A DNA stretch of 64,000 bases. Origin: Promethearchaeota archaeon (GTDB taxonomy: Archaea > Asgardarchaeota > Thorarchaeia > Thorarchaeales > Thorarchaeaceae). Each line of letters opens with the position of its first letter. Within the stretch, counting starts at the first letter, position 1. This document shows, piece by piece, positions 2,435 through 11,727 of the stretch. The notes under the pieces were generated by a model. The model was not told where the DNA came from. It saw nothing but the letters and a program-made list of their open reading frames with translations, and made no database searches. The position numbers and the translations under genes were made by a program. The stretch spans positions 860-64,859 of the forward strand of contig WJMJ01000002.1 in assembly GCA_014728035.1 (NCBI GenBank), given 5' to 3'.

Positions 2435-4405
2435 TTATTTCTTCTTTGTTGATGCCTTCTTTTTAACTTCCTCTTTAGAATCATCTTCTATCTTTCCAAT
2501 AATATCGTCATATAAGGCATTAATACCATTCATTTCATTTTGAAGTTGGATTATCTCTTCTTTCAACTTGTGTTTACGAGCTGTCTGTAGTGCTTGTTGG
2601 ATAGCGGAAATCAAACGTTCCAATTCTAGTTTCTGTTCTTCAGGATTTTTCATCTGAAGCATAGCCATACGCTTTTTGGGCATTACACTAAGCAATCCAG
2701 AAATGGCATCAAGAGCCTCTTCTCTACTATCGAGTGTAGCTTGTAATTCATCCTGTTCTTCAGAAGCTGATAAAATTCGCGAGATTTGGTCAAGTACCTT
2801 TTTATGATCAGCAATTGCAGTTGAAATTATATTTTGAACTTCTTCCTCATCGTCTTCTTCAGCGTCCTCTAATCTATCTTCAAGTTGTGAAATTGCACCT
2901 TCTAAGAAGGATTTGCGGTCTGAAAGAGAGGTTCTTCTACGTTCCATCCATCTCCATTCACTTTCAATGCTATGAGTTAATGCAAGAGCTTGATTGATTT
3001 TCTCTCTATACTGATCCATCTTTTCACGTGCATCTTCAAGGTCATTTTCCAGATTATCAGTAACAAATGATAATTGATAACTTAGAATATTGCCTGCTTG
3101 TGCTTCTGTAAGAACACGACTCTCTTTGATGGCTCTAGCAGCCTCTTCCCAGAGTTTGTCCACTTCCTCATCGTCACAAATTGTACGGCCTGTTAGATCA
3201 AGTTCATCTGAAATTTGCTCGATTCGTTCATTTAATTCTTGAATTTCAGAGATCTTAGTCTTCAACAACGCCGTTCCTAATCGAGCATTAATTTCATTCA
3301 TCATTTTCTGACGTTCTTCTGGAACTTCATTGAGAACTGATGTGTTGTCTATAAGTAGTTGAAGTGCCTTTTCGAAAGCAGTTACCGCGTCAAGATACTC
3401 TTCATTTTGAACTAATTTGTCACCTTTTGTACGTAGTTTGAGTACCTCCTCTAAAACATCATAGGGGGAAGTTTTCAGAAGACTAACTCCAAGGTCATGT
3501 GCTTCTGGAGTGGTAAGATCAAGCGACAATTCATTCAGTAGCAATTCCACAATTACCAGACCATCTGATGAGGCAATAAACACATTTGGACCATCAGCAT
3601 CAATCCAATTAGCTTTGAAGCCGTTTACTTTTACTTTTCCAATGAAAATATTCCGTTTAATGTCCCAAACAGCTAAGTGATTGGAATTAATAGATGCAAC
3701 AATAAAATGTTGATTTGCCCATAGAGAAGTCAAAGGGTCTGAATTATCCGCTGAAAAAGTCTTGCTAACTTTCCATTCAATTCTGTCAAACACATAAATT
3801 GCATCTGAAGAAACTCCTGCAATGATGAAATCTTCATTTCCGGTAACAATAGCACCTTTAATCTTTTGATCAATAGGATGTATTTCTTTGGGCTGGTCGT
3901 TTTCTTTGTGCGTCCAGATAATCGGTTCAGATTTCTTTGTGCCGGTGCAAATATGGTGGTCATCAGACCATAGTGTGGTGATATCTGTTTTATGGAGTTG
4001 CCAGCTTGAAGTTTCATGAGTATCCTTTTTTATTGCAACTAGTCGACCATCCTTAGCACCAACGTAGAGATAATCACCTCGCAAAGTGGATGATATTGCT
4101 TGATAACTTAGCTCAAACCACCCCAACATGCCCCAGGTCTCTTTCTTCCAGACATAGACCCGTTTCTCACATGTTGCATAAATATGTTCATCATCAACAT
4201 GTACTGAAAGAGGTTCGGAACTGGTTTCACCTAGAACAGCCTTAATTTGCCAATCTTCGCGAGAAATCACTCGCACCCGTTGATCTGTGCATGCCACATA
4301 GAGATAACTCGTGTCATGAACAATGTAGGTTGCATCCATTTCTAGAACAGCAACAGTTTCATGACCAAGAGTTAGGCTCTCGGCTGCACCTCCCGTTTTG
4401 GACAC
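2435..4405 (-). CDS. Seven-bladed WD40/PQQ-like beta-propeller fused to a ~350-aa alpha-helical/coiled-coil region and a Lys-rich tail
   Basis: 656-aa ORF with a GTG start at 4405. Seven ~40-aa blades (YLYVACTDQRVRVIS, HIYATCEKRVYVWKK, YLYVGAKDGRLVAIK, HHICTGTKKSEPIIW, DFIIAGVSSDAIYVF, HFIVASINSNHLAVW, NVFIASSDGLVIVEL). Then E/K/L/Q-rich helices that begin with a TPR-like unit. C-terminus is KEEVKKKASTKKK. Confidence 0.8.
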   Translation of the reverse strand: MSKTGGAAESLTLGHETVAVLEMDATYIVHDTSYLYVACTDQRVRVISREDWQIKAVLGETSSEPLSVHVDDEHIYATCEKRVYVWKKETWGMLGWFELSYQAISSTLRGDYLYVGAKDGRLVAIKKDTHETSSWQLHKTDITTLWSDDHHICTGTKKSEPIIWTHKENDQPKEIHPIDQKIKGAIVTGNEDFIIAGVSSDAIYVFDRIEWKVSKTFSADNSDPLTSLWANQHFIVASINSNHLAVWDIKRNIFIGKVKVNGFKANWIDADGPNVFIASSDGLVIVELLLNELSLDLTTPEAHDLGVSLLKTSPYDVLEEVLKLRTKGDKLVQNEEYLDAVTAFEKALQLLIDNTSVLNEVPEERQKMMNEINARLGTALLKTKISEIQELNERIEQISDELDLTGRTICDDEEVDKLWEEAARAIKESRVLTEAQAGNILSYQLSFVTDNLENDLEDAREKMDQYREKINQALALTHSIESEWRWMERRRTSLSDRKSFLEGAISQLEDRLEDAEEDDEEEVQNIISTAIADHKKVLDQISRILSASEEQDELQATLDSREEALDAISGLLSVMPKKRMAMLQMKNPEEQKLELERLISAIQQALQTARKHKLKEEIIQLQNEMNGINALYDDIIGKIEDDSKEEVKKKASTKKK

Positions 4406-4648
4406 TATTATTCAGTCCTACTAAACATTCGCTATCAATGACGAGATTTTTTATCTCTTAAGGGATTTCCTCATGTATCATTTACGTGTTAATAGGTTGT
4501 TTTTCAAGGCAAAAATAGGTCGATTTATCGAAAACAATCCAAAAAATGAAAAAGGAACCGCGCCAAGGCGTACCTAAATAGCCAAAACACACTAATATAG
4601 TAGAAGTGAAATGAAAATACAGCCGCACTATTATCGGAGGAAAATCAT
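4406..4648. promoter_or_regulatory. Divergent AT-rich intergenic region shared by the propeller gene (-) and the tubulin-like operon (+)
   Basis: 243 nt. TATA-like TAATATA at 4593-4599, about 50 nt upstream of TTG 4649. A/T-rich box (gattttttatc, ~4445-4455) upstream of the minus-strand start. SD-like GGAGG at 4636-4640, 8 nt before TTG 4649. Confidence 0.4.
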
Positions 4649-7336
4649 TTGGATACCCATGCATGGAGGCGTGAGCTAGACAAGCTCGCTGATTTGAAAG
4701 GAATACTGATTTCTCTCAATCCCTCATTAGAAGAAAATGTTAGCAGACAAGTGCGTCATCTTTTTGACGTGTTTGCAAAAGTAACAAAATTGGAACAAGA
4801 GGTTGAGGAAGCAGGTTTCTTCAGTAAAAGAAAAGTGGAAGGTCAGTTTGAGAAAGTTCATTCTGAACTTGAAGAGGATTTCATGCGAGTCACTAGAGAT
4901 TTCGGTGACCTTGCAAATAAGGAATTCAGAAAAATCCAAACAGTTGTACCTGGGCTTCAAGCTCTAAGACCAAAAGAAGCAACAGCCCTCAAGAAACTAT
5001 CCTTTCCGAGCGTAGGAACTGGCGCACCACAAGATCTCGAAACACTCTTCGAATTTATGGATAAGTTTTCAAATACGGTCACAAGCCTACACGATGAGTT
5101 CGCACGTGAAGTAAAAAACCTGCTTGATGAGAATAAACGTATTGTAGAAACATACGAACGGCACATTACAATAGATAGAGGAGAAGTCACAACCACTATT
5201 TCCAATGATGATGTGTCTCAGATGCCACTTAATGACCTCATTAGAATCATGGAAAAGCTGAAGGTTGAACGGACCTATCTGGATGGGCGAAAAGACGAAG
5301 TTGGACGGATGCTAACGACAGCATTGATGACAGATGTAGAGGCACTCCAAGCATATGTTGAAACAGCTTCAAAGATTGGACTTGAATTGCCAATGGACTT
5401 TACACAAAAATTGAGAATCCTTGCCCGTGATGCTTCAAAAGCGTCAAATCTAACAACACTAATCAGTCTTGAAAACCAGCTCCAGACAGCCAGACTTCAA
5501 ATGGGGAATATGCTTCGAGATAAGATCATCAATCTCAAGCATGAAATAACTACAAAAATCGTTTCTGGTGGCATTCCTACCACATCGGAGGTCATTCCAG
5601 AAGCTCCAACCGTAGGTGTTGAAGGAAACGACATTGCAAATCTATTAGCTTCTTATCAGAAAATGGTTGAGTGGACAAGTCAAGTTCGTATTTCACTGAA
5701 GCAGGAAATAGAAGAATCTTTAGAGGAACTTGCAAAAGCTACCGACAATCCAAGTGATTGTGGGATAGAAGATGTGCTTGAAGCAAGAAAGGACATCGCT
5801 GATTGGAAGAAAGAACTATCTTCAGCTGACATTGATGGAATGATTAAGATATATCTCAAAGCATCAGAACGGGAAGAAGAATATAGAAAGCATGTTACTG
5901 ACTTGATTAAGAGCTACATTACAAGATTCAATGAATTAGCTACTTCTGCAGACAGAGTTCTAGATTATGCACAATTAAGTAAGAAGGCACCAAAAGTTGA
6001 AGACTTGGAAGGAGGAATTGTGTTTCTGATTGAATCTTTGAAAAACCTCAGACAAGCTGTTGAAAGTGGTGTAGCAACATTTCGTGACGCATGCCAACAA
6101 GAAATTGATGCTATCATCCAAGACCTTCAAACCATAAAACCTCAGTATGCAGAAATATTCATGCCGATTAATGTTGAACTAGAAGAAGGCTCAATGCGAA
6201 TCGAAGCAATGAATGAGTTCAGTGAAATTCGTTCTGAAATGAGAACCATCAAAGATACCATTCTAGCAAAGGCAAAAGATGCACTTGAAAACCTCCGATA
6301 TCGACTCCAAGTCAAGATTCGCCTTGCAGCAGCGAAACTGATGGGGGCGGGTGTTGAAATTCCAAATGAAATCCAAGAAGCTATCAGTGAGCTAAATAAC
6401 GTAGGCGTTGCAGCTGATAATGTGTTCAGCTTGCCGGCTATCGCCCGAAGAATGATAGAATTATATGAACACAAGATTACCGATAAGATTCTCGAAGTCC
6501 TCGAAGAAGAGGTTAAACAGCTGCTGGGTATGCTTGAGAAAGCTCAGAGTATTGGTGTAGACGTAGATAAGGAAATTGCAATTGTGAGTGCAATCAAGGA
6601 CGAACCACCTACTGAATTAGATGATGCTGCTGATGCTTTTGATAAGCTCGAAGGACTTACTACTTCTGAAGCAGTTCATAAGAAGGTTCGTTCCAGAGCA
6701 AATGAAGCATATCGTCAAATCAAAGATGCTGTATCTATCTTTGAAGAACAAGGTATGTCAGAATTTGTTCAGAGATTGTCAACCCTTCTTGATCGAGTAC
6801 CATCTCAGCTTTCAGAGAGCTCGAAACATGTGAATGAGGCTCTAGATGTGTGTCTGACTCTAGCAAATATCCAAGAGGAGATGCTTGATGTTATCAAGGG
6901 TATTGCAGCTAAAGAGAAGGAGGCTCATGATAAAGACATCCGAACAAAGAGCAAATATTACTCAACAATTGAACGTGTGTACAAAATGCACCCTGATGAT
7001 TTTAGCAGACTCATCTTTGATTTGAAAAAGATGGACAAACTAGAATCAAAACTGGAAACTGCAAAATCTCTTGACAATGCAATCGCGTCCTTTAATGAGC
7101 TATCAAGAATGCGAGTTGACTGGGTTGAAAAAGCTGCCAAGATGGATGATTGGCACAAATCCCTAAGAGTATACATGTCAGGATTCAGTGCGAGTGCAAG
7201 TGCAGACGAACGAAGTAAGTTTATTGACGATTCTACGAGGAAGATTCGTGAGACCTTTAGCAGAGAAGACATTAGCTCGTATCTATCTTGGGCCGTACAA
7301 GTATTGGTTCGTGCAATGGTAGAAAAACGCGGTTAG
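4649..7336 (+). CDS. 895-aa all-alpha-helical, coiled-coil-rich protein of unknown function; first gene of the tubulin-like operon
   Basis: Long ORF with a TTG start and a GGAGG RBS. E/K/L/A-rich heptad-like sequence throughout. No TM segment, P-loop or other catalytic motif recognised. A weak motif G-[LIV]-[ED]-[LIVD] after a helix recurs (IGLELP aa 243, CGIEDV aa 371, GAGVEIP aa 566, IGVDVD aa 635). Confidence 0.8.
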   Translation: MDTHAWRRELDKLADLKGILISLNPSLEENVSRQVRHLFDVFAKVTKLEQEVEEAGFFSKRKVEGQFEKVHSELEEDFMRVTRDFGDLANKEFRKIQTVVPGLQALRPKEATALKKLSFPSVGTGAPQDLETLFEFMDKFSNTVTSLHDEFAREVKNLLDENKRIVETYERHITIDRGEVTTTISNDDVSQMPLNDLIRIMEKLKVERTYLDGRKDEVGRMLTTALMTDVEALQAYVETASKIGLELPMDFTQKLRILARDASKASNLTTLISLENQLQTARLQMGNMLRDKIINLKHEITTKIVSGGIPTTSEVIPEAPTVGVEGNDIANLLASYQKMVEWTSQVRISLKQEIEESLEELAKATDNPSDCGIEDVLEARKDIADWKKELSSADIDGMIKIYLKASEREEEYRKHVTDLIKSYITRFNELATSADRVLDYAQLSKKAPKVEDLEGGIVFLIESLKNLRQAVESGVATFRDACQQEIDAIIQDLQTIKPQYAEIFMPINVELEEGSMRIEAMNEFSEIRSEMRTIKDTILAKAKDALENLRYRLQVKIRLAAAKLMGAGVEIPNEIQEAISELNNVGVAADNVFSLPAIARRMIELYEHKITDKILEVLEEEVKQLLGMLEKAQSIGVDVDKEIAIVSAIKDEPPTELDDAADAFDKLEGLTTSEAVHKKVRSRANEAYRQIKDAVSIFEEQGMSEFVQRLSTLLDRVPSQLSESSKHVNEALDVCLTLANIQEEMLDVIKGIAAKEKEAHDKDIRTKSKYYSTIERVYKMHPDDFSRLIFDLKKMDKLESKLETAKSLDNAIASFNELSRMRVDWVEKAAKMDDWHKSLRVYMSGFSASASADERSKFIDDSTRKIRETFSREDISSYLSWAVQVLVRAMVEKRG

Positions 7337-10320: not shown

Positions 10321-11727
10321 ATGTCTGGCCTTAAGAAAATGCTGAGTCCGAAAGTAACGGCAGTAGTGGGTGTCTCAACATCGAACCCCTTTAGTCCCGG
10401 AAATGTGATTTTTAGAAAACTAGCTTTTGAGAATGGTCTCAAGACTTATCCAATCAATCCAAAAGGTGGAATGATTGAGGGCGTTCAAGCGTACAAATCC
10501 GTTGCTGAAGCACCTGATGATATTGATTTAGTAGTTATTTCAGTTCCAGCAAAATATGTTCCTTCAGTATTGAAAGAAGTTGCAGAAAAAGGAATTAAAT
10601 CAGTAATCGTAGTTTCTGGCGGATTCAGTGAGACCGGAGATACTGGTGAAAGCTTGCAAAAAGAGATAGTAGAGATTGCTGAGAAGAATGACATTACTAT
10701 GGTTGGTCCGAATTGTATAGGAGTTTTTGTTCCAGAAACACTGGACACATTTTTCTTGCCATCAGAACGAGTTGCTCGTCCGATCAAAGGTTCGGTTGCT
10801 TTAATCTCACAGAGTGGAGGTTGGTTGATTGAACGGCTTGAAGAGTTTGCTGAAAGAGATGTAGGTATAGCGGCTGCTGTATCAATTGGAAATGCAGCTC
10901 AAACGAAAGTTACTGATTTCGTCAAACACTTTGGTAAGGATGATAAAGTAAATGTAATCCTTTGTTATATAGAAGGATTTGGAGAAGGAGAAGGAAGAGC
11001 TTTTGTTGAAGCAGCTGCTGATATTGCTGAAAAAAAACCAGTAGTTGTTCTTAAAGGTGGACAGTCCGAAGCAGGACACAGAGCCACTCAGAGTCACACT
11101 TCTTCTCTAGCTGGAAATAGAGTCGTAGCTTCAGCGGCATTCAAACAATTTGGAGTAATCGAAGCAATTGATGAAGATGAAGTCATGGCATTCTCCAAAG
11201 TCTTCTCATTCAAACCAAAGACAATGAAGGGACCAAAAGTTGGATGCTTAACGGTAAGTGGCGGACATGGAGTAATTGCAACTGACGAAGCAGATCATTA
11301 TGGTTTGAAGTTGCCAATGTTTTCAGAAGAAGAGCAAGAGAAACTCAGGTCGCAAATGACCCCCTCATACCAACGAATTGCATCATTCAGAAATCCCTGT
11401 GATCTCACCGGAAGCGCGTCAGACTTAGATTATGAAAAAGTTCTAGATGTAATGCTTGAGCTGGAGAAAGTCGATGCAGCACTTCTTCTTATGTTACCCT
11501 ACGCTCCAGGAATTTCATTACAGGTTGGTGCAAGAGTAGCTAATGTTGGAAAACGGTACAAGAAAACAATCGTTGCATATGTTCCAGATTTGGAAAAATA
11601 TGAAGTGATAATCAGAGGATTTGAGCTGAATGGTATTCCTGTTGGAGATACTATCGAAGAAGCAGTTCAGATGATTCACGGAATCAATAAACGTTCACAG
11701 TATCTAAGAAGAATTGGAGCAATTTAA
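10321..11727 (+). CDS. Acetyl-CoA synthetase (ADP-forming) alpha subunit / CoA-binding NDP-forming acyl-CoA synthetase
   Basis: 468 aa. N-terminal CoA-binding fold (VAVVGVSTSNP...INPKG). Succinyl-CoA-synthetase-like region with the phosphohistidine motif TQSHTSSLAG (cf. SHTGSLAG in archaeal ACD alpha). No ATP-grasp beta subunit is adjacent. Confidence 0.8.
   Translation: MSGLKKMLSPKVTAVVGVSTSNPFSPGNVIFRKLAFENGLKTYPINPKGGMIEGVQAYKSVAEAPDDIDLVVISVPAKYVPSVLKEVAEKGIKSVIVVSGGFSETGDTGESLQKEIVEIAEKNDITMVGPNCIGVFVPETLDTFFLPSERVARPIKGSVALISQSGGWLIERLEEFAERDVGIAAAVSIGNAAQTKVTDFVKHFGKDDKVNVILCYIEGFGEGEGRAFVEAAADIAEKKPVVVLKGGQSEAGHRATQSHTSSLAGNRVVASAAFKQFGVIEAIDEDEVMAFSKVFSFKPKTMKGPKVGCLTVSGGHGVIATDEADHYGLKLPMFSEEEQEKLRSQMTPSYQRIASFRNPCDLTGSASDLDYEKVLDVMLELEKVDAALLLMLPYAPGISLQVGARVANVGKRYKKTIVAYVPDLEKYEVIIRGFELNGIPVGDTIEEAVQMIHGINKRSQYLRRIGAI

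Follow-up and report, generated by a model that had tools for sequence, protein, structure and literature searches.

Our analysis of a 64,000-nucleotide stretch of the genome of a Promethearchaeota archaeon (GTDB family Thorarchaeaceae; assembly GCA_014728035.1, contig WJMJ01000002.1, forward strand, positions 860-64,859; hereafter, the window) revealed a gene, P0001 (2435..4405, minus strand, stop codon at 2435-2437), for a protein that combines a WD40-type beta-propeller, a single TPR motif and a predicted helical rod. We tentatively favor the reading that the protein, which is specific to one Thorarchaeal family, acts as a soluble, acidic scaffold or adaptor in the cytoplasm and is a dispensable, lineage-specific accessory of the tubulin-like filament system encoded next door. 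This reading is suggested by the presence of P0001 as a single copy in 60 of 76 genomes of the family, by its divergent orientation to the tubulin-like gene in each of the 47 genomes that have the two on one contig, and by the steady length of the spacer between P0001 and the operon. An adaptor unrelated to the operon is ranked slightly lower, and a coat-like role is very unlikely.

Gene Conservation and Distribution

In the list of open reading frames (ORFs) and their translations, P0001 encodes 656 aa and opens with GTG; its orthologues start at the equivalent position with ATG. The source genome (4.3 Mb, 173 contigs) carries one copy. Homologues named Thorarchaeota number 221 and are about 50% identical, the nearest named ones coming from Candidatus Thorarchaeota metagenome-assembled genomes. 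As the identity of about 50% extends from end to end and 68 columns are invariant in the 36 aligned orthologues, P0001 is a real gene under selection. The net charge of its product is -42, no membrane segment or signal peptide is predicted, and scans of Pfam and NCBIfam gave no match to enzymatic families.

The distribution of the family was surveyed in 301 genomes sampled across the phylum, a strong match being defined by E <1e-30 (40-86% identity). Strong matches were found in a single GTDB family, Thorarchaeaceae-like, while genomes outside it yielded only weak matches to the propeller. The weak matches in G112 (sister family) and G016 were rejected as orthologues, being 14-blade double propellers that lack the rod. 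Among the nearest propeller matches from outside the family, one belongs to Hodarchaeota and one to Pacearchaeota.

Genomic Context

P0001 faces three tightly packed plus-strand genes across a divergent intergenic spacer of 243 bp (4406..4648). The first, P0002 (4649..7336), encodes an all-helical protein of 895 aa with no Pfam family; the second, P0003 (7356..8738), a divergent tubulin/CetZ-like GTPase of 460 aa (Pfam Tubulin, E 3e-19); and the third, P0004 (8740..9828), a 362-aa protein without Pfam or NCBIfam matches that is conserved with the operon. The first-pass annotation, made from the sequence of the window, had pointed to this divergent neighborhood, and it is indeed kept in all 47 genomes having both genes on one contig; the scattering of homologues over unrelated loci, named there as a contrary outcome, did not occur. 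In nine other genomes the two genes are on different contigs, the WD40 gene lying mostly near a contig end. The distance between the WD40 and tubulin-like genes is 2.9-3.5 kb, which is the length of the first operon gene, except for two genomes with about 5.2 kb. In G134 (genus g12, 5.2-kb gap) a 205-aa paralogue of the TATA-binding protein (L018:4027-4644, on the strand of the WD40 gene; Pfam TBP, E 2.4e-62) is located between the WD40 gene and the operon, and the same paralogue is probably present in G230 (also g12, gap 5.2 kb).

According to 17 aligned orthologous spacers, the spacer keeps a length of 200-252 bp even between genera that share only about 50% identity in their orthologues. 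On the WD40 side it carries one CTTAAG-type box near the start of the gene, and on the operon side a TTAAG/TATA-like box, GGAGG and a conserved TTG start. The TTG start and GGAGG of the 895-aa gene are kept in 17/17 aligned genomes (window 4600-4651; L006-L024), and an ACAC..TTAAGA/TATAG box lies about 45 bp upstream in the aligned spacers. The earlier suggestion of a shared divergent promoter had to be dropped, as the 200-250 bp contain two separate TATA-like TTAAG boxes.

On the other side of P0001, a plus-strand gene for a 216-aa TPR protein (P0005, 1776..2426; TPR_2, E 7.4e-16) is convergent with the WD40 gene, their stop codons being 8 bp apart. This neighbor, also listed in the first-pass annotation, is adjacent in 19/19 orthologous loci and occurs as well in genomes without the WD40 gene.

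Several observations weigh against a functional connection between P0001 and the operon. First, the whole stretch, from a surface protein through the TPR gene, the WD40 gene (where present) and the operon to the acetyl-CoA synthetase alpha subunit (ACS-alpha), is syntenic across the family; as its flanks, the surface protein upstream and ACS-alpha downstream, are unrelated to the system, the adjacency may simply be inherited. Second, at least eight Asgard families besides this one have the three-gene module without a WD40 gene. Third, at least three lineages of the family have the operon but lack P0001, as seen in G027 (genus g4), G116 (g10) and G103 (g9); these genomes are 93-98% complete, and in them the operon directly follows the TPR gene, a WD40 gene being absent from the whole genome. 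When the presence and absence of P0001 are mapped onto a tree built from residues 1-420 of the first operon protein, three changes of state are needed, and well-supported branches force at least two of them. The WD40-less G103 is sister (support 100) to WD40-bearing g9 genomes, which indicates that P0001 was lost repeatedly and that the losses were tolerated. The apparent absence of the WD40 gene from G245 (L036) is uninformative, since the assembly, nominally "single-contig", is a scaffold interrupted by 100-N gaps, and one gap falls inside the 895-aa gene. Finally, the helical half of P0001 shows no relationship to either helical protein of the operon (hhalign probabilities of 4% and 0.1%).

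These data would also fit P0001 being a generic WD40/TPR docking adaptor with no functional tie to the operon, its position reflecting inherited gene order in a stable region. We consider this explanation quite possible, if somewhat doubtful. It agrees with the synteny reaching from the surface protein to ACS-alpha, with the intact operons of lineages lacking P0001 and of other Asgard families, and with the location of P0001 on the opposite strand behind a TATA-like box of its own. It is at odds with the persistence of the divergent arrangement over at least 15 genera at about 50% protein identity, P0001 never having been found relocated. In archaea, gene order at such divergence usually survives only for linked genes. 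On this sequence evidence, the link between P0001 and the tubulin-like operon is a weak one.

The Propeller

The AlphaFold2 model of P0001, built on an alignment of 36 orthologues, has a mean predicted local distance difference test score (pLDDT) of 86.4. Residues 13-290 (3536..4369, minus strand) contain 28 beta-strands, that is, seven blades of four strands each. The blades start at residues 13, 54, 93, 132, 173, 213 and 253, spaced by 39-41 aa, in agreement with the seven blades at intervals of about 40 aa that had been recognized earlier. Alignment of the whole model by VIA-align, which re-aligned the best Foldseek matches, gave for WDR61 (3ow8) a Z of 31.8 at a root-mean-square deviation (rmsd) of 2.2 Å over 272 residues; alpha-COP, beta-TrCP, PLRG1 and RACK1 were tied at Z of about 31, and Apaf-1 was also among the matches. 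The 50 best matches were canonical seven-blade WD40 domains (Z 30.6-31.8), and all 50 alignments were confined to residues 5-308 of P0001. Judging by the model, the propeller is an ordinary canonical seven-blade WD40 fold. Its blades 1-4 form the best-conserved part of the protein, with a mean column identity of 0.77.

The sequence signal is weaker. None of the Pfam WD40 or beta-propeller models reaches its curated cut-off with P0001, the best ones being Beta-prop_WDR36-Utp21_1st with 34 bits (cut-off 80) and WD40_CDC20-Fz with 32.6 bits (cut-off 200); precomputed PF00400 matches exist on some of the orthologues. The blades are of the DDxxhYxxxxxxxVxVWxKxxW type, common to multi-propeller Asgard proteins. 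In the ESM Atlas, alignments of the whole protein were limited to the propeller, with WD40 proteins of Campylobacterota of about 710 aa scoring 0.89-0.90.

A propeller of the PQQ type had been named as an alternative in the first-pass annotation, and another enzyme or a spurious ORF was considered here as well. The only point in favor of a PQQ enzyme is a PQQ_2/BamB match at E 0.084; it is opposed by the seven blades, by the canonical WD40 fold at Z 31 and by the lack of a signal peptide, and a spurious ORF is opposed by conservation over the full length in 60 genomes. Fold and conservation refute all of these, and their probability is negligible.

The Helical Half

The propeller is followed by about 350 aa of helices opening with a TPR-like unit, as had been read from the sequence. 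In the model these are ten helices at residues 314-655, connected by short loops and measuring 20, 17, 43, 24, 50, 21, 35, 23, 24 and 41 aa. Successive three-helix bundles share long helices (pLDDT 85-86), and residues 296-656 folded alone gave a pLDDT of 85 and a predicted template modelling score of 0.56.

The TPR-like unit was identified by the family profile of the C-terminal half, which at positions 31-71 matches consensus TPR proteins (CTPR3 designs) with E 3.4e-6. P0001 has one such motif, at aa ~325-366. In Pfam, TPR_2 matches 18/23 family members and TPR_11 17/23, at best with E 2.5e-5, and neither Pfam nor the profile found a tandem array of three or more TPRs; the next helices are 43-50 aa long. 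With its capping helix, the motif forms an MIT-sized three-helix bundle (aa 314-385; 3251..3466, minus strand), the second most conserved part of P0001 (column identity 0.74).

No sequence relative of the helical half was found beyond the family. When 1.84 billion representatives were searched exhaustively with phmmer, the helical half was covered by family members alone, either full-length or as fragments, all out-of-family matches being restricted to residues 11-290. Foldseek against the PDB returned nothing below E 1e-3 (TM-scores up to 0.27), and the ESM Atlas nothing above noise level (scores up to 0.83, TM up to 0.37). When VIA-align was run exhaustively against 48,161 chains, Z did not exceed 11.2; this lies inside the range of background of the tool for helical proteins, values below about 13 being background for helical bundles. 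All the following VIA matches are in this range. Residues 10-90 of the C-terminal-half model match bundles of the MIT and TPR types at an rmsd of 1.6-2.4 Å over 70-80 residues. Residues 88-260 match plectin/spectrin repeats, the rod aligning with 5j1g_B (Z 9.9, 175 residues, rmsd 7.4 Å) and 1s35_A (Z 9.9, 166 residues, rmsd 8.2 Å), and residues 262-354 match designed three-helix bundles; rod matches overall have Z 9-10. The Pfam Spectrin model matched neither P0001 nor the 23 family members.

The MIT-type matches of the first bundle raise the alternative that it is a true MIT domain binding MIM motifs in ESCRT-III-like proteins, P0001 then being an adaptor of the ESCRT-III or microtubule-severing type. 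Nearly the whole MIT domain is covered in the alignments to Vps4 (2v6x), archaeal CdvC (2w2u), katanin p60 (5lb7) and MITD1 (4a5x), at Z 9.8-10.3, and Pfam MIT (PF04212) is weakly matched by 6/23 members (best E 0.0098), P0001 itself not being matched. However, Z of about 10 is background for helical bundles, the TPR models match more members and more strongly, and there is no ESCRT gene in the neighborhood of P0001. We regard this alternative as highly improbable.

From the model, the helical half is best described as a rod in which about four three-helix bundles follow one another, with the TPR motif in the first; the part specific to the family is at aa 386-640 (2486..3250, minus strand). 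This description rests on a predicted monomer. Two other architectures were rejected. A regular stack of hairpins, i.e., a solenoid, fits neither the modeled helix lengths of 17-50 aa nor the background-range matches to three-helix bundles, and in place of one long dimeric coiled coil the monomer model shows the rod. The structure prediction proposed in the first-pass annotation for telling solenoid from coiled coil has returned neither in its simple form; the helical part had been judged there to look "more coiled-coil than solenoid".

The protein ends in a variable charged tail (aa 641-656; 2438..2485, minus strand). It is Lys-rich in P0001, as had been noticed, but the binding of acidic lipids or nucleic acid attributed to it finds no backing, as the tail is the least conserved part of P0001 (column identity 0.13), and the whole protein has a strongly acidic character. 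Among orthologues the tail may be acidic, basic or missing, many of them having an acidic one or none.

Relation to Membrane Coats

Proteins of Asgard archaea in which helices follow a propeller have repeatedly been cited as potential precursors of the vesicle coats and nuclear-pore scaffolds of eukaryotes. Zaremba-Niedzwiedzka and co-authors reportedly pointed to Thorarchaeal propeller-plus-helical proteins in 2017. The P0001 family is probably one of those cited. The alternative to be weighed here is that P0001 is a protocoatomer-like coat or tether, with the propeller and a helical stack assembling on membranes and the basic tail on acidic lipids. Its domain order fits, and in a Foldseek search with the whole model the first match was Vps18 of the HOPS core (8dit_C; E 3.4e-16, 776 columns). 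Moreover, a preprint of October 2026 described a "CORVET/HOPS-like" AFESM structural cluster (representative A0A3P7E7I7) of propeller-plus-solenoid proteins that unites 34 Thorarchaeia sequences with eukaryotic ones (PMC13734099). Since Vps18 was the first Foldseek match, the P0001 family may well be the Thorarchaeia part of this cluster.

The Vps18 match, however, has an rmsd of 28 Å and a TMq of 0.37, which means that only the propeller superposes; with the helical half alone it falls to E 0.045 and TMq 0.11, and Vps18 is not among the 50 best VIA alignments. These 50 consist of plain WD40 domains, and no coat, nucleoporin or tether protein in them aligns past residue ~308. Neither such proteins nor EzrA-type ones are among the matches of the helical half listed by Foldseek or by VIA (in the latter, the 50 best of 48,161 chains), although a fold missing from such a list is not thereby excluded. 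Pfam Clathrin/CHCR, COPI, Sec31, Nup and Vps models do not match the helical half, coat families are absent from the 25 families most often matched by the 23 members at E up to 1, and a whole-genome search for Clathrin/CHCR gave only sub-threshold matches, in other ORFs. The modeled helices of 17-50 aa would not fit stacked hairpins, and the unconserved tail, the net charge of -42 and the absence of membrane segments also speak against a coat. Finally, a protein family that occurs in just one archaeal family does not qualify as ancestral to eukaryotes.

A coat or tether is accordingly given only a slight probability, and we conclude from the model that the protocoatomer parallel is limited to domain order. 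The first-pass annotation had itself called the parallel only architectural, which holds; its comparison with coat and nucleoporin scaffolds gains no support beyond that order. A canonical WD40 domain joined to a lineage-specific rod in one Thorarchaeal family should not be counted as archaeal evidence for protocoatomers. Of relevance to the coat question is also a separate helical-plus-propeller gene pair in G112 (sister family f2; L037:145-4915), in which the gene of an 887-aa all-helical protein precedes, at a distance of 88 bp, that of a 672-aa double propeller using the blade motif of P0001.

The Tubulin-Like Operon and Flanking Genes

The best PDB sequence matches of P0003 are CetZ proteins (4b46 at 3.3e-10, then 3zid). 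The genome also has two canonical FtsZ genes, which makes P0003 its third member of the tubulin superfamily, and similar genes were found in 116/301 Asgard genomes searched. P0003 is 85-89% identical within the GTDB family and 43-61% in eight other Asgard families. A CetZ-like group of Asgard archaea, Asg.Tub, a third paralogue beside FtsZ1 and FtsZ2, has been described, and only coiled-coil neighbors, no propeller, are named for it (Santana-Molina et al., 2023; PMC9871819). P0003 probably belongs to this group. Homologues of the 895-aa and 362-aa proteins flank the tubulin-like gene in 12/12 loci inspected in several Asgard families, so P0002, P0003 and P0004 constitute a conserved module.

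Some further observations concern this module. The identity of P0003 within the family contrasts with the 50-65% of its neighbors, which points to unusually strong constraint for an uncharacterized protein. Several genomes of the Asgard family f22 have two paralogous copies of the whole three-gene module at distant loci (L029, L033 of G259). In two other Asgard families, the translations of ORFs upstream of the module (L029:3333-4283 and L032:6183-6770) open with P-loop motifs of the small-GTPase type (GxxGxGKT). In the window, the locus is flanked by a gene for a membrane-anchored protein with a weak Oxidored_molyb match (164-1609) and by a gene of the acetyl-CoA synthetase alpha type (10321-11727), both of which keep their synteny throughout the family, with no evident functional connection to the locus.

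Proposed Function

Conservation of P0001 peaks in blades 1-4 and in the TPR bundle, the likely binding surfaces. Judged by the models and alignments, the WD40 propeller, with its almost invariant blades 1-4, presents a surface for docking, and the TPR unit, closed by a third helix, a second site of the peptide-binding type. The roughly three further bundles predicted behind it form a spacer arm of 250 residues. Built in this way, P0001 would bridge two or more partners. Its likeliest clients would be the three proteins encoded by the divergent operon, namely P0002 (895 aa, helical), the tubulin-like Asg.Tub GTPase P0003 and P0004 (362 aa). P0001 would not be a membrane coat; its role may be analogous, though not by descent, to that of WD40-containing microtubule-associated proteins. 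Co-folding of P0003 with P0001 residues 1-390 gave a score of 0.00, which, as controls were not run, counts neither for nor against binding.

A more specific version of this proposal, in which P0001 is a WD40-based prokaryotic analogue of a microtubule-associated protein and a partner of Asg.Tub filaments, is rather unlikely. P0001 would then dock to the polymer, or to its two helical partners, via blades 1-4 or the TPR bundle, and the rod would space or cross-link the polymer. If so, the Thorarchaeal locus would encode a cytoskeletal system of four or five components in the closest archaeal relatives of eukaryotes.

With the coat question set aside, the interest of P0001 lies in its fixed position opposite an unstudied Asg.Tub operon. 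Should it work with the operon, it would be the first known accessory factor of the Asg.Tub system and would offer a practical biochemical handle on it.

Comparison with Known Systems

Protocoatomers, such as clathrin heavy chain, COPI alpha/beta', Sec31, Nup scaffolds, HOPS/CORVET Vps11/18/41 and IFT-A, resemble P0001 in having an N-terminal propeller followed by helices. However, the helical part of P0001 superposes on none of them, alternating long helices instead of forming regular hairpins, and P0001 has no coat-family sequence signal and is restricted to one archaeal family.

WD40 adaptor domains, including those of WDR61 (3ow8), PLRG1/Prp46, alpha-COP, beta'-COP, beta-TrCP/Fbw7, RACK1 and T. 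curvata 5yzv, share the fold of P0001, with 270-288 residues aligned at Z 30.6-31.8 and an rmsd of 2.1-3.0 Å. Their sequence identity to P0001 is merely 9-15%, and P0001 is without their C-terminal partner domains (F-box, coatomer solenoid, and others).

In TPR proteins the motifs form arrays, whereas P0001 has a single one. MIT domains (PF04212) are, like the bundle located in P0001 right after the propeller, three-helix bundles of 70-80 residues, but the MIT model stays below threshold and the ESCRT context is absent at the P0001 locus.

Regulators of tubulin-superfamily polymers built of comparable elements exist in both bacteria and eukaryotes: EzrA is a bacterial spectrin-repeat regulator of FtsZ, and katanin p80, the EML family and KIF21A are eukaryotic WD40 partners of tubulin. 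EzrA was not among the top VIA matches of the helical half of P0001. In katanin p80, the EML family and the tail of KIF21A, as in P0001, a propeller is combined with a helical region for oligomerization or spacing. The homology of P0001 to these proteins is limited to the generic WD40 fold: the WD40 domain of KIF21A (7klj_B) matches with a TMt of 0.77 in Foldseek, and the EML beta-propeller match in Pfam is weak (E 2.2e-7, below the cut-off). The P0001 gene also lies next to a gene of the tubulin superfamily.

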